The position numbers and the translations under genes were made by a program. The notes beneath the pieces were generated by a model. It was given only the letters and a program-made list of their open reading frames with translations, did no database searches and was not told the origin of the DNA. Below are positions 4,432 through 62,736 of a stretch of DNA of 64,000 bases, in pieces (position 1 is the first letter of the stretch; every line of letters starts with the position of its first letter). Where the stretch lies: positions 9,513 to 73,512 of the forward strand of contig CBDFJV010000006.1 of NCBI GenBank assembly GCA_965248605.1, written 5' to 3'. The stretch is from Dehalococcoidia bacterium. Its GTDB lineage: Bacteria; Chloroflexota; Dehalococcoidia; Lucifugimonadales; CAUZJF01.

Positions 4432-4437
4432 TCCACT

Positions 4438-4541
4438 GTCATTCCGAACGCAGTGAGGAATCAAAGAGACGTGTAACTGACACAGCTTCGCCTATAGCTA
4501 CGACCTTGGATTCTTCTTTCGCTTCACTCAATCAGAATGAC
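4438..4541. repeat. Solo pair of inverted GTCATTCCGA..GAGGAATC-type hairpin repeats with no ORF between them
   Basis: GTCATTCCGAACGCAGTGAGGAATC lies at 4438..4462, and a degenerate inverted copy (GATTCTTC..CAGAATGAC) lies at 4509..4541. It is the same hairpin type that brackets the GIY-YIG genes at 13.4 kb and 29.5 kb. Confidence 0.6.
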
Positions 4542-7222: not shown

Positions 7223-7918
7223 GTGAAGGCCGCGCAGTACCGAGGACGATCTCTCGACTACATAATGTTGGAGCCAGACGACTATCGGCCGGAGCACTCC
7301 TATCCGCTGGTGGTCCTGCTTCATGGTTTCGGGTCTCATATGGGCGATCTGGCCGGCTTGTGTCCGGTGATCGATTCCAGTGATTATCGTTATGTTTTGC
7401 CGAACGCGCCGATTCCGATGCAGGTCAGCTACGGCAACACAGGTTTCGCCTGGTTCAACTTGGACGAGGATGGAGACAACGCAGCAAGCGCCGAGGAAGC
7501 GAAGGCCGCCGAACAGCAGATCGCGGACCTGGTCGACGAAGTGACGGACCAACACGAAGTCGAGCCACGGCGCACCGTACTGGGAGGCTTTTCCCAGGGC
7601 GGTATGCTGACGCTGCAGTCAGGCCTGACGAGACCAGAGGTCTTCCGTGGGCTGGCCGTACTCAGCGGCAGATTCCCGGAACCCGATGAACTGATACCTC
7701 GCCTACCGGAGCGACGCGACCAGTCGATCTTCGTCGCTCACGGTACAGCCGACCACATGATTGCGGTAGAAGAAGGCCGCGAGGCGGTCGACCTCCTTAA
7801 GCAGGAGGGGTACAGGCCCGAGTACCATGAGTATGAGATGGGCCACCAGATAACGGCAGAAGTCGTCGCTGACCTCTCGACTTGGCTCAGCGTGGTTTTA
7901 CCTCCCACGCGGTCCTAG
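7223..7918 (+). CDS. Alpha/beta hydrolase, phospholipase/carboxylesterase family
   Basis: LLHGFG, the nucleophile elbow GFSQGG and a C-terminal HG..D/H give the Abhydrolase_2-like layout. Confidence 0.75.
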   Translation: MKAAQYRGRSLDYIMLEPDDYRPEHSYPLVVLLHGFGSHMGDLAGLCPVIDSSDYRYVLPNAPIPMQVSYGNTGFAWFNLDEDGDNAASAEEAKAAEQQIADLVDEVTDQHEVEPRRTVLGGFSQGGMLTLQSGLTRPEVFRGLAVLSGRFPEPDELIPRLPERRDQSIFVAHGTADHMIAVEEGREAVDLLKQEGYRPEYHEYEMGHQITAEVVADLSTWLSVVLPPTRS

Positions 7919-8078
7919 GATCGACGATACGCGTGCGATTCGTCGACCAGGCTCTTCAGTCGTCGAGCCGCCTCGTCATCCGGGGCGTGCTAACCGCGAC
8001 GGCACGAACACGTTGCATCTGTTATAGGCTGGCAGGCGTATAACAGTCAGCGCTACGCGACGTCCGTTGGGGATATCC

Positions 8079-8107
8079 TTGACACCCTTTCCGGAGCTAC
8101 GCATAAT
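8079..8107 (+). promoter_or_regulatory. Candidate sigma70-type promoter for the TPR gene
   Basis: TTGACA at 8079..8084, a 17-nt spacer, then CATAAT at 8102..8107. Confidence 0.35.
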
Positions 8108-10470: not shown

Positions 10471-13218
10471 CTAAACGGTCGCGGCCTCCGTGGCGCGGTC
10501 CGGGCGGTCCGGCCTTGTGGCCTCCATTTTCTCGATACGGACCGCGCATACCTTGTACTCAGGGATCTTCGAGTCCGGGTCGTGCGCCGAGTTCGTGAGA
10601 AAGTTGGCGGCGTGCTTCTGAAGCTTGACGAAGGGCACGAAGACCTCGCCGGCTCGCATCTTCTCAGTGTAGGTCGCGCGCGCTTCCAATTCTCCGCGCT
10701 TCGACCGCAACCGTATCCATTCGCCATCCGCGACGCCATATTTTTCGCCGTCCTCGGCACTCATAGCCACCTGCAGCTCGGGAGACCGTGCCAGCAGGCC
10801 GGCCGAGCGACGTGTAATCGTGCCCCCGTGCCAGTGGTAAAGTATCCGTCCGGTGTTCAGGATCAGCGGGAATCGCTTCGAAGGCATTTCCTCCGCCTGA
10901 GGGCCCTGGTCGAAGGGCACGAACTTCGCCCGAGGGCCGCGTGGGAAGTCCTTTTCGTAAAGGAACCGGGTGCCCGGATGGTCCGGCGTCGGGCAAGGCC
11001 ACTGGATCCCGCCCTCGTTGTCGAGTCGCTCGTAGGAGATACCGGCCATACTCGGCGTAAGGGCTGCCATTTCCGCCCATATCTCAGAGGGGTGGCCGAA
11101 ACCGAACTCCGACTCCACGCCTAGCCCCAACCGGCGGCTCAGGCGCCGTCCCAGATCGCCGATGATGTCCCAGTCGGGGCGGCTCTCGCCGATCGGCTCG
11201 ATAGCCTTCCGGACCCGTTGCACCCTCCGCTCGCTATTGGTGAAGGTGCCGTCTTTCTCCGCGAACGTGGTGGCTGGAAGCACGACGTCGGCGATCTCGG
11301 CCGTTTCGTGGAGGAATATGTCTTGGACAACCAGGAACTCGAGGTTCTTGAATGCCTTCTCGGCCTCCGTGAGGTCCGGCTCGCTCAGCAGAGGGTTTTC
11401 GCCGGTAATGTACATCGCCTTGAGGCGGCCTTCTCTGGCCGCCTCGACCATGTCGGTCACCACCATTCCCTTCTCGGCCGGGAGCCCGGCGCCCCACGCG
11501 TCCTGGAACTTGTCGACTGTGACCTCGCTGATCACCTGATACCCAGGGAAGGCGTTCGGCAGACATCCCGCGTCGCCGCATCCCTGCACGTTGTTCTGGC
11601 CGCGCAGCGGAGAAATCCCGTTGCCGGGCTTGCCCATCTGGCCGGCCACCATCGCGAGGTTGAGGAGGCCGTGGGCGTTTGGGGTACCGTTGGTATGCTG
11701 TGTTATGCCCATGCCCCAGATGAGGCACGAACCGCTAAAGGGCGGGCTCGCGTATATGCCAGCCGCCTTCGCAATATCCTGAGCCGGCACGCCGGTGATC
11801 TTCTCGGCGTAGTCCAGGTCGTATTTGTCGATAACGGCCCGCCACTCTTCGAACCCCTCCGTCCGATCTCGGATGAAGGCTTCATCGGCCAGCCCGTCGT
11901 CGAGGATCACCTTGGCCATGGCGTTCAATAAGGCGACGTCCGTCCCAGGTCGGGGCCTCAGCCAGAGCTCGGCGAAATCGCACATCTCGATGCGCCTCGG
12001 GTTGATCACTATAAGCTTGGCCCCACGCTCGACGACGGCGCGCCGCATCCGGGAAGCCGCCACGGGGTGGTTGGAGTTGGCGTCGGACCCGATAATGACC
12101 AGACACCCGGCCTCCTCGTAGTCGATGTAAGAGTTGCTGGTCGCGCCGCTGCCCAATGAGGTCAACATGGCCTCGACGGACGGCGAATGGCATAGCCGGG
12201 TGCAGTGGTCGATGTGATTGGACTGCATAACCAGCCTGGCGAACTTCTGTTGGACGTATCCGTCCTCGTTGGTCGCCTTCGCCGAGCAGAGCGTTGCGAA
12301 AGAGTCGCCACGGTACTCAGCGAGGCGCTCGACCACGTAGTCGAGGGCTTCATCCCATGAGGTCGGGGTCAGCTTGCCGTTTCGTCGCACCAGGGGCCGC
12401 GTCAGCCGGTCCTGGTGGTGTACGAAGGTGTACCCGAACCGTCCCTTGACGCAGAGCATCCCGACGCTTGATTCGTTGTCCGGGTCGTCGAGCATCTCGA
12501 TGATGCGGTCGGTCTCATCGACCTGAGCTTTGATCCCGCAGCCAACACCACAGTACGGACAGGTGGTGGTCACGCTTCGGACAACGTTGTCTACCGGTTC
12601 CTTCACCTGAATTGCGCCGGTCGGGCAAACGGACAGGCACTGGCCGCAGGTCGTGCATACCGACTCAACGAGCGGTCCGTCCATGAACGTCCCTATGCGG
12701 GCATCGGTAGCCGCGCCAAGAATATCGATGGCGCCGATGAACTGGTGGCCGTCCTGACACGCCTGCGCGCATCGGCCACACATGATGCAGTCGTCCATCG
12801 CGATGTTGAAAACGGGGTTGCTGTCGTCGACGGGCTGTCGCGACCGTCCGTCCCAGCGAGTGCCTTCGAGGTCGTGGTGCTTGGCCGCGACGGAGAGCTC
12901 TTTGTAGTCTTTGGCGCCGTTCCCGTTCTTCGGGAACATCGCCAGCGTCAGCTCGACGACTCCGCTTCGCACGGCACGGAGCTCAGGGGTGTCCGTCCAC
13001 ACCTCCATTCCATCGACGGATGGAACGGAGCACGACGCCGGAAATCCGCGCTGGCCGTCGATCTGGACAAGGCAGGTGCGGCAGGCCCCGATGGGCTTCA
13101 TGTCGGGGTCTTTGCATAGCTGGGGCACGTAGGCGCCGGAGGAATTCACGGCGTCGAGCACGGACGAGCCGTTCTGGACCTCGACGGGGCTTCCGTTAAT
13201 CGCGAGTGTGATGCTCAT
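10471..13218 (-). CDS. fdsA: NAD-dependent formate dehydrogenase alpha subunit (Mo/W-bis-PGD), cysteine type
   Basis: The N-terminus carries 2Fe-2S and 4Fe-4S cysteine clusters (NuoG-like), followed by molybdopterin oxidoreductase domains. RLCHSPSV has Cys where selenocysteine FDHs carry Sec. The ORF is uninterrupted. Confidence 0.9.
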   Translation of the reverse strand: MSITLAINGSPVEVQNGSSVLDAVNSSGAYVPQLCKDPDMKPIGACRTCLVQIDGQRGFPASCSVPSVDGMEVWTDTPELRAVRSGVVELTLAMFPKNGNGAKDYKELSVAAKHHDLEGTRWDGRSRQPVDDSNPVFNIAMDDCIMCGRCAQACQDGHQFIGAIDILGAATDARIGTFMDGPLVESVCTTCGQCLSVCPTGAIQVKEPVDNVVRSVTTTCPYCGVGCGIKAQVDETDRIIEMLDDPDNESSVGMLCVKGRFGYTFVHHQDRLTRPLVRRNGKLTPTSWDEALDYVVERLAEYRGDSFATLCSAKATNEDGYVQQKFARLVMQSNHIDHCTRLCHSPSVEAMLTSLGSGATSNSYIDYEEAGCLVIIGSDANSNHPVAASRMRRAVVERGAKLIVINPRRIEMCDFAELWLRPRPGTDVALLNAMAKVILDDGLADEAFIRDRTEGFEEWRAVIDKYDLDYAEKITGVPAQDIAKAAGIYASPPFSGSCLIWGMGITQHTNGTPNAHGLLNLAMVAGQMGKPGNGISPLRGQNNVQGCGDAGCLPNAFPGYQVISEVTVDKFQDAWGAGLPAEKGMVVTDMVEAAREGRLKAMYITGENPLLSEPDLTEAEKAFKNLEFLVVQDIFLHETAEIADVVLPATTFAEKDGTFTNSERRVQRVRKAIEPIGESRPDWDIIGDLGRRLSRRLGLGVESEFGFGHPSEIWAEMAALTPSMAGISYERLDNEGGIQWPCPTPDHPGTRFLYEKDFPRGPRAKFVPFDQGPQAEEMPSKRFPLILNTGRILYHWHGGTITRRSAGLLARSPELQVAMSAEDGEKYGVADGEWIRLRSKRGELEARATYTEKMRAGEVFVPFVKLQKHAANFLTNSAHDPDSKIPEYKVCAVRIEKMEATRPDRPDRATEAATV

Positions 13219-13304
13219 GGTGTGCCTTTCGCCCTATGGGCCGATAGCAGGCAGCGAGAACAGATATTTTGTCCTGTACGTTCTCGACTCCAGGCTAGTT
13301 CTTG

Positions 13305-13329
13305 GATTCCTCGCTACGCTCGGAATGAC
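13305..13329. repeat. GTCATTCCGAG..CGAGGAATC hairpin repeat (extra copy beyond the GIY-YIG unit)
   Basis: GATTCCTCGCTACGCTCGGAATGAC is the reverse complement of the hairpin found upstream of both GIY-YIG genes. Confidence 0.6.
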
Positions 13330-13408
13330 GGTGCGCATCGAATTACCTCCTGGCCCTCGACACCTCTGCGACTGTCACCTAGCACCTCGTTGGCGTTTCC
13401 CCCACACT

Positions 13409-13789
13409 GTCACCCTGAGGCCGCTTCGGGCGAAGGGTCTAAGGACTCGCTCTGCGGACCGTACCAATCCATCGCCAGATCCTTCCATCGAGGGTTCAGC
13501 GACTCGATGAGCGCTTCTTTTTTCGAGCGGCGCCAGCCTTTGAGCTGCTTTTCTCGCGCGATCGCAGAGGTGATATCGCTGGTGGCCTCATAGTACGCTA
13601 ACCATGTGATGTTGTACCGCTTTGTGAACCCGTCTACGAGCTTCTGTTTGTGCTCGTAGACCCGGCGCATGAGATCGCTGGTTACACCGGTGTAGAGGGT
13701 CCTCTTGCCATTGGTGAGGATGTAGACATAGTACTGACCCATCGGCCTTCCGGCTGGTCCTTAGATTCCTCGTCGGACTCGGAATGACA
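13409..13789 (-). mobile_element. Hairpin-bounded GIY-YIG unit (intact copy)
   Basis: On the coding strand the order is GTCATTCCGAG-N-CGAGGAATCTAAGGAC (13789..13758), then the GIY-YIG ORF, then GTCCTTAGACCCTTCG-N-CTCAGGGTGAC (13446..13409). The same architecture occurs at 29481..29857. Confidence 0.6.
13410..13742 (-). CDS. GIY-YIG nuclease family protein (small URI-domain type)
   Basis: YYVYILTNGKRTLYTGVTSDLMRRVYEHK...REKQLKGW gives the GIY-YIG motifs. The last codons and the stop lie inside the 3' hairpin repeat. Confidence 0.85.
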   Translation of the reverse strand: MGQYYVYILTNGKRTLYTGVTSDLMRRVYEHKQKLVDGFTKRYNITWLAYYEATSDITSAIAREKQLKGWRRSKKEALIESLNPRWKDLAMDWYGPQSESLDPSPEAASG

Positions 13790-14006
13790 ATCCGGGCGAT
13801 TCCAGGGCTTCTTGAAGTGTTAGCTTGAGAGTCTCCAATAGATCCTCATGAGTCGATTCCTGGCAGTTCACGCCAGGCAACTCTTCTACCCAGCCTATCC
13901 ACCAGTTGCCGTCCTGTTTTATGACCGCCGTATATCCGCTCTTCAGAGTTCACCTCAGGCGCGATGAACGCCAAGCTTACTTGTCCTGTCTGCGGCGATC
14001 AACTGC

Positions 14007-14165
14007 TTATCCCGAAACACCTGCCAGCGTCGCCGCCTCGTCGCCGAAGAAGTGGAGAGCGCTGTTGATCGGCGCTCCCGCCGCCTGGCCTAGCCCGCAT
14101 AGCGACGCGAGAGACACCACTTCTGAAAGATAACGTAGCTCGTCCAGATCGCCGGGCCGAACCGC
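14007..14165 (-). pseudogene. Duplicated 3' end of fdsB (displaced fragment)
   Basis: It encodes ..GDLDELRYLSEVVSLASLCGLGQAAGAPINSALHFFGDEAATLAGVSG*. The 119-bp core 14037..14155 differs at 3 positions from 14705..14823 in the intact gene, while the last ~30 nt before the stop are diverged. Confidence 0.85.
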
Positions 14166-14200
14166 CATACGACCTGGAGCGCTCCGGGGGGCATCGACCT

Positions 14201-14461
14201 TCACGTATACACCTCACTCCGGTGCCCGACTGCGTAGACCGTTACGCTCTTATTCGAATCGTCGATTTGGTAGAGTACGCGATACGCTCCCACTCTGACC
14301 CGATAAGAATTCGTGCTTCCAACGAGCTTGCGGCACTGGCTCGGCCTTGGCTCTGAGGCAAGGGACTGAATCAACCTGAGTACCCTTGTTCCGAGTCGCG
14401 GAGATAGCTTCTCCAGCTCTCGTGTCGCTGTTCGCCTTATTTCGACTCGGTAGTCTGCCAC
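14201..14461 (-). CDS. Type II toxin, RelE/ParE family
   Basis: An 86-aa protein with ..YRVRVGAYRVLYQIDDSNKSVTVYAVGHRSEVY, the typical RelE/ParE C-terminal pattern. It overlaps the upstream antitoxin ORF. Confidence 0.8.
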   Translation of the reverse strand: MADYRVEIRRTATRELEKLSPRLGTRVLRLIQSLASEPRPSQCRKLVGSTNSYRVRVGAYRVLYQIDDSNKSVTVYAVGHRSEVYT

Positions 14462-14640
14462 CTATCTTCCAGCCTCTTCCTTACGATTTCAAACGGCTCG
14501 GCTGGCTCATCTTTCCGCTCCGCCATCACGGCAAGGTCCTCCAGATCTTCCAGGAGCTCCCGATATTCTCCCAAAGGGATTACTACCGAAGTCTTCCTCC
14601 CATTCTCATCGACCAGAAAATGCTTCTTCGCTCTAGCCAT
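14437..14640 (-). CDS. Type II antitoxin (Phd/YefM- or RelB-like)
   Basis: A small acidic protein (MARAKKHFLVDENGRKTSVVIPLGEYRELLEDLEDL..). The ATG at 14640 is preceded by GAGGAG. It overlaps the toxin start. Confidence 0.7.
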   Translation of the reverse strand: MARAKKHFLVDENGRKTSVVIPLGEYRELLEDLEDLAVMAERKDEPAEPFEIVRKRLEDRWQTTESK

Positions 14641-14677
14641 ACGATTCTCCTCAGATTTGAACATCCAGGCTCATGTA

Positions 14678-16291
14678 TTATGACACGCCTGCCCGCGCCG
14701 CCATCTCGTCGCCGTAGAAGTGGAGAGCGCTGTTGATCGGCGCTCCCGCCGCCTGGCCTAGTCCGCATAGCGACGCGAGAGACACCACTTCTGAAAGATA
14801 ACGTAGCTCGTCCAGGTCGCCGGCCGAGCCGTTTCCTGAAATCAGCCGGTCGAGGGTGTCGACGATGCGAGGCGTACCTTCGCGGCAGGGTGTGCACTTG
14901 CCGCACGACTCCGCCGCGTTGTAGGCGGCCAGCCGCCGGACTACGTCGAGCGCGTTCGTCCTTTCGTCGAGCGCGATCACGCCGCCGGCTCCGAGCATAA
15001 CGCCGGACTCGTGGAGCTGGCCGGGAGCGATCGGCGTGTCGAGCATGGACACCGGGAACACGCCGCTGGACGGTCCGCCGACAGCGACTCCGGTGAGAGT
15101 GTGTCCTGTCCGCGGCCCTCCTCCGATGGCGGTGATGATCTCGCGGAGCGTCGTGCCCATCGGCACCTCGACGACGCCGGGCCTCGGCACCGACCCGCTG
15201 AGGCTGACGATCTTGGTCCCCGAGGCGTCCTCCGCCCCGATCTCGGCGAAGGCGGCCGCACCGTTGGTCATTATGAACGGCACGCTTGCTAGAGTCTCGG
15301 CGTTGTTGATCACCGTCGGTTTCGCCCACAGGCCGGCCTCGGTCGGAAAGGGAGGCCGAAGCCGCGGTTCCCGACGGTACCCTTCCATCGTATTGAGCAT
15401 CGTCGTCTCTTCGCCGCAGACGTAGCCACCGGCTCCTCGGAGAATCTCGACGCTCAAGTTGTACCCCGAGCCCAGAATATCGTCGCCCAGCAGGCCAAGC
15501 TCCGCTGCCTGCTCGACGGCCTTCCGCACCCGCTCGGCCGAGAGGTTCGCCTCGGCGTTGATGTAGACGTAGGCCTGTTCGACGCCCGACGCGTAGGCCG
15601 CAACGATCGCCCCTTCCACGACCCGATGGGGCACGCCCTCCATCAAGTGGCGGTCCTTGAAGACTCCGGGTTCGCCCTCCTCGGAGTTGACTACGAGATA
15701 ACGGGGTTCGACTTCAACCTTCCGAGCCCCCTCCCACTTCAGGGCGGCGGGGAAGTACGCGCCCCCTCGGCCTCGGAGTCCGGAGGCCTTGACCTCCTCG
15801 ATGACCTCTCCAGGCGACATCGACAACGCCCTTGCGAGACCCGCGTATCCGCCACTGAGGATGTAGTCATCGGCCTCGGTAGCCTCCAGCTCGCCACACC
15901 GGTCGAGAGCGACACGATGTTGCTTCTCGAGAAACGCCTCCGACTGACTATCCGCTTTCCTTGCCCCGCCGGCCGCTCCGGAGACGTGTGCTGCAATTGT
16001 GTGAATTGCTTCGGGTGTGACGTTCGCAATCCTCGTATGGGCGCCGTTTTTCCGCGGAATCAGCACCTGCGGAGCCGCGAAGCACGCTCCCTCGCAGCCT
16101 GCTATTACCATATAGGCGTTGTCCGGTATCGAACTCGATAGGGAGTCAGCCACGTCCTGTGCGCCGACGGCCTGCGAACAGTGTCCGACCTGGACTACGA
16201 CGCGGGCCTTACCAGCGCGTTCAGAATCGTAACGCCTCTGCGCCGCCTCCTTCAATTCGTTTAGTGCGTTGACGGGACTGGTAGCCATCAC
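14678..16291 (-). CDS. fdsB: Formate dehydrogenase beta subunit (NuoF-like NAD/FMN/4Fe-4S)
   Basis: RGRGGAYFP (FMN site), the GEPG.FKDR motif and the C-terminal cluster ESCGKCTPCREG are present. It overlaps fdsG by 4 nt. Confidence 0.9.
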   Translation of the reverse strand: MMATSPVNALNELKEAAQRRYDSERAGKARVVVQVGHCSQAVGAQDVADSLSSSIPDNAYMVIAGCEGACFAAPQVLIPRKNGAHTRIANVTPEAIHTIAAHVSGAAGGARKADSQSEAFLEKQHRVALDRCGELEATEADDYILSGGYAGLARALSMSPGEVIEEVKASGLRGRGGAYFPAALKWEGARKVEVEPRYLVVNSEEGEPGVFKDRHLMEGVPHRVVEGAIVAAYASGVEQAYVYINAEANLSAERVRKAVEQAAELGLLGDDILGSGYNLSVEILRGAGGYVCGEETTMLNTMEGYRREPRLRPPFPTEAGLWAKPTVINNAETLASVPFIMTNGAAAFAEIGAEDASGTKIVSLSGSVPRPGVVEVPMGTTLREIITAIGGGPRTGHTLTGVAVGGPSSGVFPVSMLDTPIAPGQLHESGVMLGAGGVIALDERTNALDVVRRLAAYNAAESCGKCTPCREGTPRIVDTLDRLISGNGSAGDLDELRYLSEVVSLASLCGLGQAAGAPINSALHFYGDEMAARAGVS

Positions 16292-16768: not shown

Positions 16769-16899
16769 CTAGTGGTCCAACATCCTAGTATTGAAGGGTT
16801 CTGAGGTTACGGCTTGGTAGGGGCGGGTTTGAAACCCGCCCTGTCGTCGTAGCACGCCAATCTCGGCTACCCCTCATTTCAAAGATTTCGGTCTACTAG
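16769..16899 (-). repeat. 131-bp CTAG-bounded MITE-like repeat, copy 1
   Basis: It is essentially identical to the six other copies. The termini CTAGTAGACC / GGACCACTAG form an 8/10 inverted repeat, and the core hairpin is GGGCGGGTTT-C-AAACCCGCCC. Confidence 0.9.
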
Positions 16900-21773: not shown

Positions 21774-22121
21774 TCAGGAGTCCAGTTGGCCCGCGACTTC
21801 GACCAACGGAGCATTCACGTGGGTTGTCGGACCTAGATCAACTGATACTGCGAACGAGCCGATACTTGCTCCGAACCATCTAACGGAATTCACCTGAGCG
21901 TGGGCGGAGGCCTTCTCTATAGCCGCCTGACGGATGTAAGCAGAGGTTTTCTGGCCTAGCCGTTCCGCGTAGTCGCCGATCAGTTCCAGGTCCTCTCTGC
22001 TGAATGCGACGGAAACCACCGCCCGCGCCTTCTTCTGGGGCGAGATGCGCTCAGCGCGTTCGTAGTCCCACTCCTCCGGCGATTCCAGATTTTCCGCTTC
22101 TTCCGCTTTCAAGCGTCCCAT
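21774..22121 (-). CDS. Ribbon-helix-helix antitoxin, BrnA-like
   Basis: AVVSVAFSREDLELIGDYAERLGQKTSAYIRQAAIE is a CopG/RHH pattern. It lies immediately downstream of the BrnT-like ORF, which matches the BrnTA gene order. Confidence 0.55.
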   Translation of the reverse strand: MGRLKAEEAENLESPEEWDYERAERISPQKKARAVVSVAFSREDLELIGDYAERLGQKTSAYIRQAAIEKASAHAQVNSVRWFGASIGSFAVSVDLGPTTHVNAPLVEVAGQLDS

Positions 22122-22123
22122 AT

Positions 22124-22405
22124 CTATCTCCTTCCTAAGTGGATGAGCTCACTCTCCTTGCAAGGCCAAGCTGTGATCGGCCTCCACACCGTCGGTTCGT
22201 GAGTGGGGACCGGCACCGCAATGCACTGGCCCCCGTGGTCCCTTCCTACCAGCAGATACAATCCTCTGCGGCGCCTCCGGTTTCGAACTAAAAAGTATTC
22301 GCTGTCGAGGATCTGCAACACTCGTCTGTACGATAGACGGTGCACGGAGAATTTCTCTTCGTTCACCTCGTCGAAGAGGAAACCCTCCACGACAGGGCTT
22401 GACAT
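22124..22405 (-). CDS. BrnT-like (DUF497) ribonuclease toxin
   Basis: A 93-aa protein. FLFDEVNEEKF...LYLLVGRD...VWRPITAWPCKESE parallels the F.WDE.K ... RIISAR.A...E pattern of BrnT. Confidence 0.55.
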   Translation of the reverse strand: MSSPVVEGFLFDEVNEEKFSVHRLSYRRVLQILDSEYFLVRNRRRRRGLYLLVGRDHGGQCIAVPVPTHEPTVWRPITAWPCKESELIHLGRR

Positions 22406-23149: not shown

Positions 23150-23280
23150 CTAGTAGACCGAAATCTTTGAAATGAGGGGTAGCCGAGATTGGCGTGCTAC
23201 GACGACAGGGCGGGTTTCAAACCCGCCCCTACCAAGCCGTAACCTCAGAACCCTTCAATACTAGGATGTTGGACCACTAG
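23150..23280 (+). repeat. 131-bp MITE-like repeat, copy 2 (first of a tandem pair)
   Basis: Full-length copy. Its right-hand CTAG (23277..23280) is shared with copy 3. Confidence 0.9.
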
Positions 23281-23407
23281 TAGACCGAAATTTTTGAAAT
23301 GAGGGGTAGCCGAGATTGGCGTGCTACGACGACAGGGCGGGTTTCAAACCCGCCCCTACCAAGCCGTAACCTCAGAACCCTTCAATACTAGGATGTTGGA
23401 CCACTAG
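23277..23407 (+). repeat. 131-bp MITE-like repeat, copy 3 (second of a tandem pair)
   Basis: Full-length copy with one visible substitution (GAAATTTTTG versus GAAATCTTTG). It overlaps the 3' end of the ORF at 23372..24373. Confidence 0.9.
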
Positions 23408-29454: not shown

Positions 29455-29526
29455 CCGACGGAGGCAATGTTCTTTGGACTGTCATTCCGAGCCCCGCGAG
29501 GAATCTAAGGACCAACCCGAAGTCCA

Positions 29527-35332: not shown

Positions 35333-35463
35333 CTAGTGGTCCAACATCCTAGTATTGAAGGGTTCTGAGGTTACGGCTTGGTAGGGGCGGGTTTGAAACC
35401 CGCCCTGTCGTCGTAGCACGCCAATCTCGGCTACCCCTCATTTCAAAGATTTCGGTCTACTAG
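35333..35463 (-). repeat. 131-bp MITE-like repeat, copy 4
   Basis: Full-length copy in the same orientation as copy 1. Confidence 0.9.
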
Positions 35464-38374: not shown

Positions 38375-39583
38375 GTGGAAGAAGCCAAGATATCGGTGTA
38401 CGGCGCGCCGTGGTGCCCAGACTGCAAACAGGCCAAGCAGTTCCTCAATGAGCAGCACGTCGCGTTCAACTGGATTGACGTCGACGAGGACCCGAAAGGA
38501 CTCGAATACGTCAAACAGACCAACGACGGTAAGCAAATCATCCCGACCATCGTGTTCGAGGACGGCTCGATTCTCGTCGAGCCAACCAACGCGGAGTTAG
38601 CGCGAAAACTAGGTATTAGCGCCCGGGCGAAGCGTCACTTCTACGACCTCGTCGTGGTGGGAGCCGGCCCGACCGGCCTGACGGCGGCAATATATGCGGC
38701 GAGAGAAGGGCTCGAAACCCTGATCGTCGAACGCAGCGGGATCGGAGGCCAGGCGGGTGTCACCGAGCGGATAGACAACTACCCAGGCTTTCCGGAAGGT
38801 GTCGGGGGCGCCGAGCTTGCGAAACTCATACAGCGTCAGGCCGACCGGTTCGGTGTAGAGATTCTACCGGCACAGTCGGTGACCAGGATCAAGACCGAAA
38901 TGCCCCAACCCTCGATCGAGACGGAGACCGGTGACGAGTACTGCACACGGGCGGTGTTGCTAGCCACGGGGAGCCGCTATCGTAAGCTCAATGTCCCTGG
39001 GGAGGACGACCTCATCGGCGCCGGGATACATTTCTGTGCGACCTGCGACGGGCCCTTTTACAAAGGCCAGGAGCTCGTGGTCGTCGGAGGCGGCAACAGC
39101 GGCATCGAAGAGGGGCTCTTCCTGACCAAGTTCGCTTCCAAGGTTACGGTGCTCGAATACGGAGACCGGCTCAAGGCAAGCAAGATCCTCCAGGAGAAGG
39201 CCGCTGGCCATCCAAAGATGGAGATACGGCTCCGACACACGGTCGAAGAGTTCAGAGGGAACGGCCGCTTGACCTCGATCGTCGTCAAAGACCTCGAATC
39301 AGGCGACGTCGAAGAGCTAAGACCGGGCGCAGCTTTCATATTCATAGGACAGCAGCCGAACACCGATTTCGTCCGCGGTGCTGTTGACCTCGATAAGTGG
39401 GGGTTCATCTCGACCGAGACAAACCTGGAGACCAGCCTTCCGGGGGTCTTCGCCGCCGGGGACGTCCGAGCAGGGAGCACCAAACAGGTCTGCAGCGCGG
39501 TCGGCGAAGGCGCCACGGTGGCGTTGATGATCAGGCAATTCCTCGAAAAGACCGAAGGCAGCCGTGGATACAGAGGGGACTAG
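38375..39583 (+). CDS. trxB: Glutaredoxin-like (NrdH/mycoredoxin-type) domain fused to thioredoxin-disulfide reductase
   Basis: The N-terminus reads VYGAPWCPDCKQAK. It is followed by VVVGAGPTGLTAA (FAD), the redox-active CATCDG and GGGNSG (NADPH). Confidence 0.85.
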   Translation: MEEAKISVYGAPWCPDCKQAKQFLNEQHVAFNWIDVDEDPKGLEYVKQTNDGKQIIPTIVFEDGSILVEPTNAELARKLGISARAKRHFYDLVVVGAGPTGLTAAIYAAREGLETLIVERSGIGGQAGVTERIDNYPGFPEGVGGAELAKLIQRQADRFGVEILPAQSVTRIKTEMPQPSIETETGDEYCTRAVLLATGSRYRKLNVPGEDDLIGAGIHFCATCDGPFYKGQELVVVGGGNSGIEEGLFLTKFASKVTVLEYGDRLKASKILQEKAAGHPKMEIRLRHTVEEFRGNGRLTSIVVKDLESGDVEELRPGAAFIFIGQQPNTDFVRGAVDLDKWGFISTETNLETSLPGVFAAGDVRAGSTKQVCSAVGEGATVALMIRQFLEKTEGSRGYRGD

Positions 39584-39630: not shown

Positions 39631-39882
39631 TTGACAGACGCCAAGATCACTATGTACGGCACGACGTGGTGCGGAGACTGCGTACGCGCCAAAGACTTCC
39701 TCGGACGCCACGACGTCCCCTATTCGTGGATCGACATCGACCGAAACCCGGACGCTTCAGATCACGTTCGCGGGCTCAACGCCGGCAAGCGCATCGTGCC
39801 CACCATCGTCTTTGAAGATGGGTCCATCTTGGTCGAGCCGACCAACGCGGAGTTCGCGACCAAACTGGAGATCCGGCCCTAG
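39631..39882 (+). CDS. Stand-alone glutaredoxin-like protein (paralogue of the N-terminal domain of the neighbouring fusion)
   Basis: MYGTTWCGDCVRAK...IVPTIVFEDGSILVEPTNAEF. The stop codon TAG (39880..39882) lies within the terminal CTAG of MITE copy 5. Confidence 0.8.
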   Translation: MTDAKITMYGTTWCGDCVRAKDFLGRHDVPYSWIDIDRNPDASDHVRGLNAGKRIVPTIVFEDGSILVEPTNAEFATKLEIRP

Positions 39883-40009
39883 TAGACCGAAATCTTTGAA
39901 ATGAGGGGTAGCCGAGATTGGCGTGCTACGACGACAGGGCGGGTTTCAAACCCGCCCCTACCAAGCCGTAACCTCAGAACCCTTCAATACTAGGATGTTG
40001 GACCACTAG
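39879..40009 (+). repeat. 131-bp MITE-like repeat, copy 5
   Basis: Full-length copy. Confidence 0.9.
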
Positions 40010-40207
40010 GCCCTGAGAGAATTTTCGTAGCCCGCCGAGTGATCATCGGTCCGTAGGGGCAGGTCTCAGATCTGCCGAACCCATGCGCACGAGACTCATT
40101 GCCGAGGTGTTCCATTGTCGCTGATGCTCTGGTATCTTTTAGCCCGTTCCATGGTCGCCCTACCCGCCTGATTGCGTGAGCCACCTCACCGCGGAGACTG
40201 TCGTCGT

Positions 40208-41449
40208 ATGACTCCAAGGGTCGTCATCACTGGCATTGGCATCGTGAGTCCCGTAGGTCTTACGAGGAACTCTACGTGGGAGGGCCTGCTGGCCGGCAAG
40301 TCCGGCATAGACCACATCAGCGCTTTTGACCCCGAGGGCCTCGAGACGAGGATCGCGGGTGAGGTGAAGGGGTTCGAGCCCACGGACTACGTCGGGAGGA
40401 AAGAGGCCCGGCACATGGACCGCTTCGTGCAGCTCGCCGCGGGCGCTGCTCTCGAAGCGGTCGACCATGCGGACCTGAAGATCAACGGCACCAACGCGGA
40501 GCGCGTTGGAGTCGTCATATCCAGCGGCATCGGCGGCATCATCACGCTCGAAGAGCAGATCGGAGTGCTCGGTACTCGCGGCGCCCGGAGGGTTAACCCC
40601 TTTCTGGTGCCCATGATGCTTCCGGACATGGCTTCAGGCCAGGTGTCGATGCTGCTAGGCGCCAAGGGGCCCAACTTCGCCACAGTGTCAGCCTGCTCGA
40701 GCAGCGGCGACGGGATCGGTCAAGCCTTCGACCTCCTGCGCAACGGGTCGGCCGACATCGTGTTAGCCGGCGGCGCGGAGGCCGCCATCTCACCGATTGG
40801 CGTCGCCGGATTCAACGCCTGCAAGGCGCTGTCCAAGCGCAACGACGAGCCGCAGAAGGCGTCGCGGCCCTTCGATGCCGGACGCGACGGATTCGTGCTC
40901 GGTGAGGGCTCCGCGGTGCTCGTCATGGAAAGCCTCGAGAGCGCCGGGAGCCGGGGCGCCCAACCCATCGCCGAGATGAAGGGCTACGGCGCGACCGCTG
41001 ACGCACATCATGTCACGCAACCGGCGCCTGGCGGCGTTGGAGGCGCCAGGGCAATGAAGATAGCGCTGGAAGGCGCCGGGCTCGGGCCCTCTGACATCGA
41101 CTACATCAACGCTCATGGCACGTCCACGCCACTGAACGACAGGGCCGAGACCGCCGCGATGAAGTCGGTCTTTGGCGACGAGGCGTACAAGATCCCAATC
41201 AGCTCTACCAAATCGATGACGGGACACCTCCTCGGCGCGTGCGGCGCCCTGGAGGCGGCGGCGTCCATAATGTCGATCAGCAACGGCGTTCTGCCACCGA
41301 CGATAAACCTCGACGAGCCCGACCCCGACTGCGACCTCGATTACACCCCTTATCTGCCGAAACGGGGCAGGATCAAGTCCGCGATGAGCAATACCTTCGG
41401 GTTTGGCGGCCACAACAACAGCCTTGTCTTCAGTCAATACGAGGCGTAG
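40208..41449 (+). CDS. fabF: Beta-ketoacyl-ACP synthase II
   Basis: RVVITGIGIVSPVG, the active-site ACSSS, and the HGTST and GFGGHN motifs are present. The ATG is at 40208. Confidence 0.9.
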   Translation: MTPRVVITGIGIVSPVGLTRNSTWEGLLAGKSGIDHISAFDPEGLETRIAGEVKGFEPTDYVGRKEARHMDRFVQLAAGAALEAVDHADLKINGTNAERVGVVISSGIGGIITLEEQIGVLGTRGARRVNPFLVPMMLPDMASGQVSMLLGAKGPNFATVSACSSSGDGIGQAFDLLRNGSADIVLAGGAEAAISPIGVAGFNACKALSKRNDEPQKASRPFDAGRDGFVLGEGSAVLVMESLESAGSRGAQPIAEMKGYGATADAHHVTQPAPGGVGGARAMKIALEGAGLGPSDIDYINAHGTSTPLNDRAETAAMKSVFGDEAYKIPISSTKSMTGHLLGACGALEAAASIMSISNGVLPPTINLDEPDPDCDLDYTPYLPKRGRIKSAMSNTFGFGGHNNSLVFSQYEA

Positions 41450-41642
41450 CAGCGTACCCCTACCGGGGTAAGGGCAGGTCCCAGACCTGCCCGCATCTCG
41501 AGGCAACGTAGTGGAAAGAGCGAGGGTCAACAACAGCCTTGTTTTCAGTGAATACGAGGCGTAGCAGCGTAGGCCTACCGGGTAGGGGCAGGTCTCAGAC
41601 CTGCCCGCTTCTCAAGGCAACACGGTGGAAAGAGCGAGCGTC
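41413..41642 (+). repeat. Tandem duplication (2 x ~115 bp) of the last 12 codons of fabF plus a downstream hairpin element
   Basis: Unit 1 (41413..41527) and unit 2 (41528..~41642) are about nine-tenths identical by eye. Each encodes NNSLVFS(Q/E)YEA* followed by GTA(A/G)GGGCAGGTC-N3-GACCTGCCC. Confidence 0.85.
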
Positions 41643-41657
41643 GACGGAGGCCGCACC

Positions 41658-42020
41658 ATGGGCCGGACCGTGATTACGGCAACCCTCCGGGGCGAGGGCA
41701 GCAGCAAAGAGTACGAGTTCCTGGTAGATACCGGAGCGACTCACGTGGGTCTGCCTGCCGAGGAGATAGCCCAGCTGCGTTTGTCTACGATACCGAAAGG
41801 TCGGACGAGACTTCTAACTGCGACAGGCGTTGTTGAAAGACAGACCTATGCGGCCCAAGGCGAGGTCGCCGGTAGGGGGTTCGTGGCAACGGTCACCGAA
41901 GCTCCCATTCCGATCGTCGGATATGAGCTTCTCGAGAGTCTCAGACTGAAGGTGAACCCGGTCAACAAGACCTTGGAAGACGTACCCGACGAAGATCTGT
42001 CCCCGCCGTACCCGCTTTGA
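41658..42020 (+). CDS. Retropepsin-like aspartic protease family protein
   Basis: FLVDTGATHVGLP contains the D-T-G active-site motif, and the size is ~120 aa. The start is placed at the ATG at 41658; the longest ORF starts inside the tandem repeat. Confidence 0.6.
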   Translation: MGRTVITATLRGEGSSKEYEFLVDTGATHVGLPAEEIAQLRLSTIPKGRTRLLTATGVVERQTYAAQGEVAGRGFVATVTEAPIPIVGYELLESLRLKVNPVNKTLEDVPDEDLSPPYPL

Positions 42021-51002: not shown

Positions 51003-51020
51003 AATCCGCTCAGTGAGGCG

Positions 51021-51070
51021 CTAATACGTCGCGCGGCCGCCGCTCATGTCGAAGGCCGCGCCGGTGCCGA
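51021..51070 (-). pseudogene. Duplicated 3' end of the SDR gene (displaced fragment)
   Basis: It reads GTGAAFDMSGGRATY*, against STGAVFDISGGRATY* at the end of the intact gene. Comparing 50 bp with 51627..51676 gives 6 mismatches. Confidence 0.7.
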
Positions 51071-51106: not shown

Positions 51107-51361
51107 CTAGAGGTACACATCGCGGCGATGGCCGACATGGATGACGGTCACCGTTCTAGCAGTGTCATCAATCTGGTAGATAGTTCGGTATTCTCCCGAA
51201 CGGATACGCCACCCTTCGCGGCCCCTGAGTTTCCTACTTCCCCGGGGTCTCGGGTCTTCTCCTAACCGAATGATGGCTGACTTGAGACGACGATAGCTGC
51301 TCGCCTCCAGGCGAGCCAGTTCCCTCTGGGCACGCCGAAGTATGAAGACATCGTAGTTCAT
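51107..51361 (-). CDS. Type II toxin, RelE/ParE family
   Basis: RIRSGEYRTIYQIDDTARTVTVIHVGHRRDVY. It is clearly related to the toxin at 14201..14461. Confidence 0.8.
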   Translation of the reverse strand: MNYDVFILRRAQRELARLEASSYRRLKSAIIRLGEDPRPRGSRKLRGREGWRIRSGEYRTIYQIDDTARTVTVIHVGHRRDVYL

Positions 51362-51564
51362 CCACGCTCTTGCTCAATCTCACGTACGGCCTGATCAAAA
51401 GGGATCACTTCGTCGCTAGAGGACGTCGCGGCGTCGTAAGCCCGGATGGATTCCAGCTCCTCAAGTTGTTCCATCAGCTTCTCGTACTCATCGATCTCTA
51501 GAATGACCCCAACCCGAGTACCTTTTTCGTCGACGACGTATTGTTGATGGACTGCTGTCGCCAT
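51358..51564 (-). CDS. Type II antitoxin (Phd/YefM- or RelB-like)
   Basis: MATAVHQQYVVDEKGTRVGVILEIDEYEKLMEQLEELE. The ATG at 51564 follows AGGAGG. It overlaps the toxin start by 4 nt. Confidence 0.7.
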   Translation of the reverse strand: MATAVHQQYVVDEKGTRVGVILEIDEYEKLMEQLEELESIRAYDAATSSSDEVIPFDQAVREIEQERG

Positions 51565-51626
51565 GGTTCCTCCTGCTTCTGGCTCCAAGCTACGTTGTCA
51601 TTTTAGCCCGATTGTGGCCCCTCGCG

Positions 51627-52388
51627 CTAATACGTCGCTCGGCCGCCACTGATGTCGAATACCGCGCCGGTGCTGAATGAGCACTCGGCGGACGCCAGCC
51701 ACGCGACCAGCGCGGCTATCTCTTCGATCTCGCCGGTCCGGCCGACAGGAATCCGCTCGACCATGTACTGCACCTGCTCGGGCGTCAGTTGGTCGAGGAT
51801 TCGGGTCTGGACCACAGCAGGGGTAACGCAGTTGACCCTAACGCCGGTCTTGGCCAACTCCTTTCCGACCGACTTGGTCAACCCGATCACCGCCGCCTTC
51901 GTCGCCGAATAGGGCACCATCCTCGGGTTGCCCTCTTTCCCTGCGATCGACGCGATGTTTACTATCCGGCCGTAGTCCCGCTCGACCATGTGCGGGATAA
52001 CGTGGTGACAGAACGAGTAAACACCGCGCAGGTTCGTACGGTACACCCGGTCCATCTCCTCAACGGGCAACTCCCAGATGTTGGCCGTATCTCCGGCGAT
52101 GCCGGCGTTATTAACGAGGATGTCGATCCGTCCCCAGGTCTCGATCGCCTGCGCTACCGCTCTTTTCGCCGTCTCATCATCGCCGACGTCCCCGACCTCG
52201 AGGCGCGCGTCGACGCCTTGGGACGCGAGCTCGGCGGCGGCTTGCTCGCCGAGGTCACCGTCGTAGTCAGCGACTACGACCCGGGCACCCTCACGCCCCA
52301 GTCTCGTGGCGACGCCAAGCCCGATGCCGGTGCCAGCTCCGGTTACGATAGCTACTTGGTCCTCGAATCGGCTCACACGACTCTCCAT
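51627..52388 (-). CDS. SDR-family oxidoreductase (FabG-like)
   Basis: TGAGTGIG (cofactor), NNAG and the catalytic YSATK are present. Confidence 0.9.
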   Translation of the reverse strand: MESRVSRFEDQVAIVTGAGTGIGLGVATRLGREGARVVVADYDGDLGEQAAAELASQGVDARLEVGDVGDDETAKRAVAQAIETWGRIDILVNNAGIAGDTANIWELPVEEMDRVYRTNLRGVYSFCHHVIPHMVERDYGRIVNIASIAGKEGNPRMVPYSATKAAVIGLTKSVGKELAKTGVRVNCVTPAVVQTRILDQLTPEQVQYMVERIPVGRTGEIEEIAALVAWLASAECSFSTGAVFDISGGRATY

Positions 52389-61227: not shown

Positions 61228-61358
61228 CTAGTAGACCGAAATCTTTGAAATGAGGGGTAGCCGAGATTGGCGTGCTACGACGACAGGGCGGGTTTCAAAC
61301 CCGCCCCTACCAAGCCGTAACCTCAGAACCCTTCAATACTAGGATGTTGGACCACTAG
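61228..61358 (+). repeat. 131-bp MITE-like repeat, copy 6
   Basis: Full-length copy. Confidence 0.9.
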
Positions 61359-62605: not shown

Positions 62606-62736
62606 CTAGTAGACCGAAATCTTTGAAATGAGGGGTAGCCGAGATTGGCGTGCTACGACGACAGGGCGGGTTTCAAACCCGCCCCTACCAAGCCGTAACC
62701 TCAGAACCCTTCAATACTAGGATGTTGGACCACTAG
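62606..62736 (+). repeat. 131-bp MITE-like repeat, copy 7
   Basis: Full-length copy in the same orientation as copy 6. Confidence 0.9.

Follow-up and report, generated by a model that had tools for sequence, protein, structure and literature searches.

How does a toxin-antitoxin (TA) pair come to lie directly behind the stop codon of an operon gene, with a second copy of that gene's 3' end on its far side? The question is posed by a 64,000-nt stretch of a Dehalococcoidia bacterium genome (GenBank assembly GCA_965248605.1, contig CBDFJV010000006.1, positions 9,513 to 73,512; the whole stretch is called the window below), in which a RelBE-type cassette follows the formate dehydrogenase gene fdsB. 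We propose a case of "insertion with long target duplication" with a type II RelBE operon as the cargo, integrated by an integrase-free, Campbell-type single crossover and kept by addiction; in our estimate this account has about an even chance of being right.

A TA cassette between two fdsB ends

All genes of the two cassettes described here read on the minus strand of the window. At the first site, fdsB is followed by a 37-nt spacer, an antitoxin gene, a toxin gene, a 35-nt spacer and a displaced fdsB tail. The surrounding arrangement, with the aldehyde:ferredoxin oxidoreductase (AFOR) gene at its head (AFOR-fdsG-fdsB-...-fdsA), is syntenic in relatives. The parts are as follows, with L168 standing for a sister genome.

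14678..16291, minus strand: fdsB, intact, NAD-dependent formate dehydrogenase beta / Nuo51-like subunit (open reading frame [ORF]; Pfam Complex1_51K, SLBB and NADH_4Fe-4S; synteny)
14678..14823, minus strand: repeat copy A, the functional fdsB 3' end with its stop, the last ~145-160 nt (repeat comparison)
14641..14677, minus strand: 37-nt spacer with a ribosome-binding site, 100% identical in L168
14437..14640, minus strand: antitoxin gene, RelB-like, 67 aa (Pfam PF18506, 32.2 bits, cut-off 27)
14201..14461, minus strand: toxin gene, predicted RelE-type mRNA interferase, 86 aa (Pfam PF05016 ParE_toxin, 46.5 bits, cut-off 23)
14166..14200, minus strand: 35-nt spacer from the toxin stop to copy B, the right-hand end of the cassette, 100% identical in L168
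14007..14165, minus strand: repeat copy B, the displaced fdsB 3' end, an open frame with its own stop (repeat comparison)

The fdsB stop codon is TAA (14680-14678), and the antitoxin start (ATG, 14640) was set by alignment with orthologues. No sigma-70-like promoter was recognised in the 37-nt spacer or the adjoining fdsB end. The antitoxin and toxin genes overlap by 25 nt here and by 4 nt at the second site. The best solved relatives of the toxin are M. tuberculosis RelE2 (3g5o) and ribosome-bound E. coli RelE (4v7j), and it is therefore probably not a DNA-cutting enzyme. By the toxin fold signature and the adjoining antitoxin gene, both pairs classify as predicted type II TA systems of the RelBE family.

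A repeat finder aligned 14014-14155 with 14682-14823 as a direct repeat of 142 nt, 94% identical, at a spacing of 668. Its 119-nt core (14037-14155 versus 14705-14823) has exactly 3 mismatches, whereas the 23 nt on the stopward side of the core have 6 mismatches and a 3-nt, codon-length indel; the mismatch densities of the two parts differ (Fisher P = 6e-4). The encoded tails end in ..HFYGDEMAARAGVS and ..HFFGDEAATLAGVSG, each followed by its stop. Copy B contains an ATG-initiated frame of 53 aa (MAVRPGDLDEL...) that is kept in the window and in L168, where the orthologue of copy B is gene-called and has a PF10589 match. Also kept in both is a GTG start overlapping the toxin stop (GTGA). An earlier reading of the letters alone (the sequence-only reading) had described the cassette directly behind an intact fdsB with a second tail downstream, the 119-bp core with 3 differences and a diverged final stretch, the two tail ends and the lack of an integrase; order, coordinates and recount agree with all of these, and only TA genes lie between the repeats.

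That reading had also pointed to a second site of the same architecture in the window, with a related TA pair, and this too is borne out; the gene in front of the pair is of the SDR family. Loci in other phyla have the architecture as well.

51627..52388, minus strand: SDR-family oxidoreductase gene, intact (ORF, Pfam; the C-terminus agrees with the consensus of 120 orthologues)
51624..51676, minus strand: copy A, the final 50 nt of the SDR gene with the stop and 3 nt beyond (repeat comparison)
51358..51564, minus strand: antitoxin gene, RelB-like / Phd-YefM-like (PF18506, 32.2 bits, cut-off 27)
51107..51361, minus strand: toxin gene, RelE/ParE family, 84 aa (PF05016, 39.1 bits, cut-off 23)
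51018..51070, minus strand: copy B, the displaced SDR 3' end (repeat comparison)

Here the repeat (51018-51070 versus 51624-51676) is 53 nt long and 89% identical. The toxins of the two sites share 46% identity and the antitoxins, where they align, 38%; neither pair is thus a recent copy of the other, and no conserved end sequences common to the two cassettes were found. The inserts measure 526 and 553 nt, with only the two TA genes inside each, and at both sites the cassette has a G+C content of 54-56% versus 63-65% in the host genes.

Recurrence of flanking gene ends in one toxin family

We surveyed 80 loci with relatives of the toxin on GTDB contigs, one genome per species, and 80 further loci from JGI metagenomes. 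At each locus, the 750 nt upstream of the antitoxin region were compared with the 600 nt downstream of the toxin at a threshold of at least 35 bits; the scan picks up compact cassettes only, and the gene-end class was assigned by eye. Pseudo-cassettes shifted to arbitrary positions in the same loci served as controls. Flanking direct repeats reached the threshold at 8 of 69 real GTDB loci versus 2 of 248 shifted ones (Fisher P = 1e-4) and at 6 of 60 real metagenome loci versus 1 of 92, which combines to 14/129 independent loci from many phyla versus 3/340 controls. Repeats flank this TA family more often than expected by chance.

The matches are heterogeneous. They comprise dispersed non-coding repeats, one tRNA 3' end and one paralogous antitoxin pair, and about half are ends of neighbouring protein genes. 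The gene-end cases are listed here.

L025, Chloroflexia: end of an FAD oxidoreductase gene duplicated, 84 nt, 94%
L051, Gemmataceae: end of a sugar kinase gene duplicated, 41 nt
L063, Chloroflexota: end of the neighbouring gene duplicated, 24 nt plus a diverged tail
L166, metagenome: end of a CAP-domain protein gene duplicated, 124 nt, 92%
L062, Geodermatophilaceae: convergent gene whose intact end abuts the toxin, 31 nt
L013, Spirochaetota: class II aminoacyl-tRNA synthetase gene, convergent, 103 nt
L020, Planctomycetia: cupin gene, 5' end duplicated, 153 nt
L002, a relative of the window organism: fdsB end duplicated, 49 nt

In 8 of 8 gene-3'-end cases examined, homology between the copies ends 0-7 nt past the stop codon. 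Several matches were left out of the gene-end cases. The top match of the genome scan (L060, 287 bits) consists of two paralogous antitoxin genes, six others (L147, L043, L143, L130, L156 and L158) are dispersed non-coding repeat elements, and the repeat at L131 is a tRNA 3' end. Overall, the architecture is found in about 5-10% of the loci of this RelE family, in Chloroflexota, Planctomycetota, Spirochaetota, Actinomycetota and others, and about 90% of the members lack the repeat. Since most copies do without it, the repeat is no obligate hallmark; it arises often, as a by-product. The sequence-only reading had held that copies without flanking duplications would count against its view of the repeat as a constant feature of a mobile TA family; such copies exist both at these loci and at the fdsB locus of the relatives L001, L003 and L171, and to that extent the view does not stand.

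Four of the loci without a gene-end duplication, and one further locus, have features of their own. At L131, the TA pair lies between identical 23-nt tRNA 3' ends (GTTCAAATCTGCCCGCCCCGATT; 223-245 and 845-867), 622 nt apart, an attL/attR-like arrangement with TA-only cargo. The motif TCCATAAAAAAGTTGGC is found on both sides of a RelBE-type cassette at L130 (373-396/1126-1150), L156 (1270-1286/2010-2026) and L158 (385-406/1125-1146); its presence on three unrelated metagenome contigs hints at a shared cassette-end sequence in some lineage. An Anaerolineae metagenome-assembled genome (L064, 460-3210) has at least three TA modules in an array, classed by eye as RelE/Phd, VapBC-like and HEPN/nucleotidyltransferase-like, with the VapBC-like module between conserved repeats of ~45 nt (GTTAT.AGTTGCGTCTGATAGCATACCGTG.GGGTGAG.ACAAAC). 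Perhaps it represents a type of cassette array not recognised so far.

Two explanations can be weighed at this point. Chance similarity, or an assembly artefact from collapsed or chimeric reads, has a negligible probability. Mismatched upstream and downstream pairs across loci reached a maximum of 29.5 bits, versus 221 bits for the repeat at fdsB and 68 bits for that at the SDR gene. An artefact at 14.0-14.8 kb, which the sequence-only reading had raised as a danger, is excluded because the copies differ in sequence, the flanks are unique and the independently assembled L168 has the identical layout with the identical 668-nt spacing; the assembly of L002 shows the architecture as well.

The layout also resembles attL-cargo-attR with a regenerated gene end, and might be read as a site-specific integrative element that is mobilised in trans by a tyrosine or serine recombinase, has its att site at a gene 3' end and carries a replacement end; the TA pair between two tRNA 3' ends at L131 would suit it. 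Against such an element stand the 0.5-kb inserts with two TA genes only, the lack of shared end sequences in the two window cassettes, orthologous cassettes without repeats at the fdsB locus of relatives, the unrelated targets (fdsB, SDR, FAD oxidoreductase, sugar kinase, CAP-domain protein, class II aminoacyl-tRNA synthetase, cupin) and the repeats of 24-165 nt with no sequence common between loci. The varying targets and repeat lengths argue against a site-specific att system. No match to a recombinase family was found among the small window ORFs with low G+C at third codon positions that were screened, large ORFs not being part of the screen. We regard trans-mobilisation as very improbable.

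An allelic series between fdsB and fdsA

The fdsB/fdsA site differs among relatives, and in the window the following features lie downstream of the displaced tail.

13801..14006, minus strand: spacer and HicB antitoxin pseudogene, remnant of a second TA module, hicBA (comparison with L168 and L169)
13410-13742, minus strand: free-standing GIY-YIG nuclease gene, flanked by 42-nt dispersed repeats at 13288-13329 and 13747-13788
10471..13218, minus strand: fdsA, formate dehydrogenase alpha subunit, downstream operon partner (ORF; synteny)

An empty allele, which the sequence-only reading had suggested looking for, is present in L170, where 153 non-coding bases separate a single-tailed fdsB from fdsA. 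In L169 (fdsB 81% identical) there is no RelBE pair, and the fdsB stop is followed by a ~65-nt spacer, homologous to the spacer behind the displaced tail in the window, and by the start of hicB. An orthologous RelBE pair is found at the site in L171 (fdsB 70% identical), and likewise in L001, L002 and L003 (fdsB 68-71% identical); L002 has the 49-nt repeat, and L001, L003 and L171 are without any repeat. L168 (fdsB 91% identical in protein, ~93% nucleotide background) has fdsB, 37 nt, relB, relE, the displaced tail, hicB, hicA and fdsA. The series thus runs from empty through RelBE only and HicBA only to both, with the displaced tail in between. From the gene orders compared, the compound locus looks like the union of two alleles, one of RelBE type and one of HicBA type, the second of which has kept its own fdsB end. 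The sequence-only reading had proposed a comparison of the phylogenetic affinities of the two tails; the displaced one was not found to be closer to the HicBA-type allele of L169, being at 82% identity no nearer to it than to other alleles.

Toxin and antitoxin of L001-L003 are 61-73% identical to those of the window and have diverged as much as fdsB, so the RelBE pair at this site is old in the clade. The SDR site is empty in the relatives L084-L087. The empty-site relatives (L170 and L084-L087) are only 73-83% identical in protein, a distance at which junctions are not comparable base by base.

In the window, the start codon of hicB has changed from ATG to CTG, and the C-terminus of hicB and the whole of hicA are lost; L168 has an intact hicB-hicA. 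The GIY-YIG element and adjoining sequence (13219-13800) stand in place of the hicB 3' end and hicA of L168. The 42-nt dispersed repeat around the nuclease gene (GTCATTCCGAG...GAGGAATC) has further copies at 4435-4466 and 29478-29509, and a similar repeat lies behind the displaced tail in L002. In L168, the relE orthologue (7829-8089) has an open frame that is not gene-called, with replacements in the conserved core, where YRVLYQIDD becomes YRVRYQSDD; the toxin may be inactivated there, in a cassette otherwise 98% identical to that of the window.

Two coding versions of one gene end

In L168, copies A and B are 78% identical over 143 nt, against 94% in the window. Their gap-free aligned part has 17 silent and 6 replacement changes, a split with P = 6e-6 were both copies neutral and P = 1.4e-3 were only the displaced copy neutral and the intact one under purifying selection. 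Seven other gene-end cases pooled have 25 silent and 18 replacement changes (P = 0.018 under the mixed model, with the intact copy selected and the displaced one neutral). By case, silent and replacement changes number 8:3 at L166 and 5:1 at L051, the clearest, and 3:2 at L025. This bias toward silent sites implies that most of the divergence between the copies arose while both were coding, as expected if they are allelic coding versions of the fdsB tail, ends from two genomes joined by recombination.

The window copies have a later history of their own. They share many derived states that are absent from both L168 copies, their core matches the displaced copy of L168 at some sites and its intact copy at others, and both edges of the repeat are degenerate. 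The near-identical 119-nt core is the product of recent gene conversion inside the window genome, in both directions. The sharp contrast between core and tail, which had been taken for the signature of a replacement end and which we considered as a crossover point between donor and recipient, fails in both roles, given the later gene conversion seen in the L168 comparison. Within the functional fdsB, the repeat stretch (copy A) is only 84% identical between the window and L168, against a background of 93% (P = 6e-4). From the fdsB stop to 26 nt into the displaced tail, by comparison, there are 9 differences in 538 nt, or 98.3% identity versus the 93% background (P = 1e-8). The cassette thus behaves as one unit, shared more recently than the flanks, and the repeats are evolving faster than the sequence around them.

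The silent-site bias bears on two other explanations. The displaced end might have been kept as a useful small protein, the C-terminal ~47 residues of FdsB translated downstream of relE, in which case purifying selection would give the bias and the duplication would have a separate origin. The 17:6 split would fit, as would the ATG frame and stop kept in the window and L168 despite ~7% nucleotide difference, and so would the conserved GTG start that runs into the toxin stop. In its tail, however, copy B changes freely between the window and L168 (~5 replacement versus 3 silent or stop-preserving changes in 30 nt), the displaced copies at the SDR site and in L002 have replacements at invariant residues, those of other loci belong to unrelated proteins and can measure no more than 24-50 nt, and L001, L003 and L171 do without a displaced copy. 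We think this explanation quite improbable.

A true long target-site duplication is a more serious contender, and is in our judgement unlikely. Breaks staggered by 50-160 nt, or a template switch in replication, would be followed by fill-in at insertion; both copies would start identical, from the recipient, and the displaced one would decay. This is the literal reading of the literature on restriction-modification (RM) systems (PMC2853133). The SDR site fits it: measured against 120 orthologues, 3 silent changes fall in the intact end and 3 replacements, at invariant residues, in the displaced copy. It also agrees with L002, whose displaced copy has replacement changes only and a decayed 5' part. 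The silent bias at L168, L166, L051 and L025 is unexpected under neutral decay. Moreover, the spacer and hicB behind the displaced tail directly follow the intact fdsB in L169, and the tail therefore looks like the end of another allele and not like fill-in. Finally, RelE cuts RNA on the ribosome and not DNA, so the double-strand-break rationale offered for RM systems does not carry over. The 3:3 split at the SDR site means that this site does not discriminate between the models.

A proposed single-crossover route

The preferred reading, a Campbell-type insertion of a TA operon, builds on the anatomy, its recurrence and enrichment over controls, the allelic series, the silent-site bias and the gene conversion described above; a circular intermediate, a single crossover and retention by addiction are what we infer from them. 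A small DNA molecule from a related genome, presumably circular, would carry a fragment of a host gene end and the adjoining TA pair. It would integrate by one homologous crossover within the gene end, leaving the target gene intact, placing the TA pair directly after the stop and displacing the other version of the gene end to the far side. Between fdsB and fdsA, the event would have joined a RelBE-type and a HicBA-type allele, and the displaced tail would thus have come to lie between the two TA modules. Recombination between direct repeats would ordinarily remove an insert; addiction modules may survive between such repeats because cells that lose the TA pair would be killed, and this post-segregational killing would counter-select loss. 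Afterwards, gene conversion would pass sequence between the repeat copies, either way. The junction may lie at the stop codon because a cassette in which no promoter was recognised needs transcription from the host gene, ahead of a terminator.

In E. coli, a single crossover with a circle carrying a truncated homologous fragment yields duplications of 109-950 bp (Amarir-Bouhram et al. 2011, PMC3240628). Homology-facilitated illegitimate recombination, a one-ended process that we favoured first, was dropped: in experiments it generally yields deletions (PMC3240628). The Campbell-type route is preferred because single crossover of a circle gives duplications.

Several points weigh against this account. 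In the loci examined we saw no circle, no donor genome and no recent insertion event. How a TA pair first arrives beside a given gene lies outside the model, which by itself also gives no reason for junctions 0-7 nt past stop codons. The silent-site bias could also come from a displaced tail that is translated and selected in place, and the SDR site would fit duplication in situ followed by decay equally well. The survey controls were shifted positions and not other horizontally acquired genes, which leaves specificity for TA cargo not established. The age of the RelBE pair between fdsB and fdsA means that the original event cannot be reconstructed.

Other repeats and TA genes in the window

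A 131-nt element resembling a MITE (a miniature transposable element with inverted repeats) occurs in 7 copies, 92-100% identical, throughout the window. Its terminal inverted repeats (CTAGTAGACC...GGACCACTAG) enclose a central hairpin, GGGCGGGTTTCAAACCCGCCC; of the copies, two are oppositely oriented and two stand in tandem. One copy lies between fdsG and the AFOR gene of the same operon. The copies are at these positions.

16769-16899: MITE-like copy
23150-23280: MITE-like copy
23277-23407: MITE-like copy
35333-35463: MITE-like copy
39874-40019: MITE-like copy
61228-61358: MITE-like copy
62606-62736: MITE-like copy

A gene-end duplicate without cargo is present at 41413-41645, a tandem duplication with a period of ~115 nt whose unit consists of the last 34 nt of fabF with the stop and ~80 nt downstream, including a GGGCAGGTC.CAGACCTGCCC hairpin. 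A gene for a retropepsin-like aspartyl protease (41625-42020) lies behind it.

A further likely TA pair lies on the minus strand upstream of a MoeA-like gene (21774-22405), with an ORF of 93 aa, BrnT-like by eye (no Pfam match), followed by one of 115 aa with weak ribbon-helix-helix matches (NikA-like/DUF6290). No significant repeat flanking it was found. The best candidate, a 31-nt repeat at 21660 and 22908 near the MoeA-like 5' end, scores 27.6 bits, which is within the control range.

At 38375-39583, a glutaredoxin-like domain is fused to a thioredoxin-reductase-like protein, and a free-standing 83-aa paralogue of that domain is encoded at 39631-39882. A stretch of 90 nt is 77% identical between the two. 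This repeat (38521-38610 / 39777-39866) had been a candidate for a third case in the window and was rejected as really two paralogous domains.

Comparison with known systems

Integrase-bearing elements that regenerate the ends of their target genes include islands in tRNA genes, and the lambdoid phage 21 and the element e14 in icd. As with them, the target gene here stays whole, and the insert has on its far side another 3' end that differs slightly from the first. The present cassettes differ in carrying just ~0.5 kb of cargo, without an integrase, and they have neither a constant attachment site nor a junction sequence in common. The analogy with elements that carry a replacement 3' end, drawn in the sequence-only reading, therefore holds for the intact target and the allelic tails (17:6 in L168), and does not extend to a dedicated integrative element. 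The recurrence of the scar at other genes and in other phyla suggests that recombination, and not a dedicated integrase, places such selfish cassettes in chromosomes.

TA cassettes of integrons are likewise small, without a recognisable promoter and in fixed orientation behind upstream transcription. Unlike them, the cassettes here are flanked by host coding sequence instead of attC, and the spacer after the toxin is just 35-36 nt long; no attC-like inverted repeat was found between the toxin stop and the repeat at either site. Terminal inverted repeats, a feature of DNA transposons and MITEs, were not found at the cassette ends either, unlike in the 131-nt family of the window.

In enterobacteria, the TA hot-spots relA-mazG and folA-apaH are intercistronic sites that are empty or filled by varied TA families or small elements (Fraikin, Goormaghtigh & Van Melderen 2020, PMC7167474). 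The fdsB/fdsA operon site is like them in being empty or holding RelBE, HicBA, both, or both plus a GIY-YIG element. It provides a natural allelic series, in which the pair of the window and L168 shows a displaced end trading sequence with the functional gene. The same review describes the mechanisms of TA integration as unelucidated and mentions no flanking duplication of neighbour genes (PMC7167474). A junction signature consisting of a duplicated neighbour-gene end at a stop codon makes the question testable.

The Campbell-type integration studied in E. coli (PMC3240628) shares with our cases a duplicated homologous segment on both sides, the lack of a site-specific recombinase and an intact target gene. 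It differs in that the E. coli case is a laboratory plasmid; here, a postulated circle would bring in a natural TA operon by way of a shorter segment (24-165 nt).

[quoted passage not shown] (2000, Gene 259:99) and Furuta, Abe & Kobayashi (2010, PMC2853133). Those inserts have no mobility gene and are flanked by direct repeats of 30-400 bp, some of which overlap a gene 3' end, with a single copy in empty genomes; breakage of DNA by the RM enzymes was proposed as the common cause (PMC2853133). Furuta et al. 2010 called for a whole module of <20 kb without a mobility gene, a flanking repeat of >30 bp and alignment of both repeats with a single copy in an insert-free relative. Our inserts are whole modules of 526 and 553 nt without a mobility gene, their repeats are 142 nt and 53 nt long, and both copies align with a single one in L170 and in L084-L087, a comparison made at 73-83% protein identity and not base by base at the junction. 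RM systems and the present cassettes have in common an addiction-type module without a mobility gene, direct repeats of variable length and occurrence in many phyla. They differ in the cargo, a RelBE pair whose toxin cuts mRNA and not DNA, to which the DNA-breakage rationale is inapplicable, and in the repeat copies, which here appear to be allelic coding versions undergoing gene conversion. That the signature is the same as in the RM pattern of the Kobayashi group points to addiction, or to host recombination, as what the two have in common, and not to cutting of DNA by the cargo.

More tentatively, and in our view rather doubtfully, RM systems and type II TA pairs might share an integrase-free way of entry, in which a circle of gene end plus module is taken in by a single host-mediated crossover. 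Killing would block both reversal and allelic replacement, so that insertions would be additive (fdsB-RelBE-tail-HicBA); the unit of repeat plus module could excise and re-enter related genomes, and the displaced end would act as a gene-conversion partner that speeds the evolution of the host gene end. A 2013 review of RM and TA systems ascribes the mode to RM systems only (PMC3874152), and full-text searches, which did not cover subscription-only papers, turned up no account of it for type II TA modules. Insertion with long target duplication is thus known from RM systems; what is new here is a type II TA pair as its cargo.

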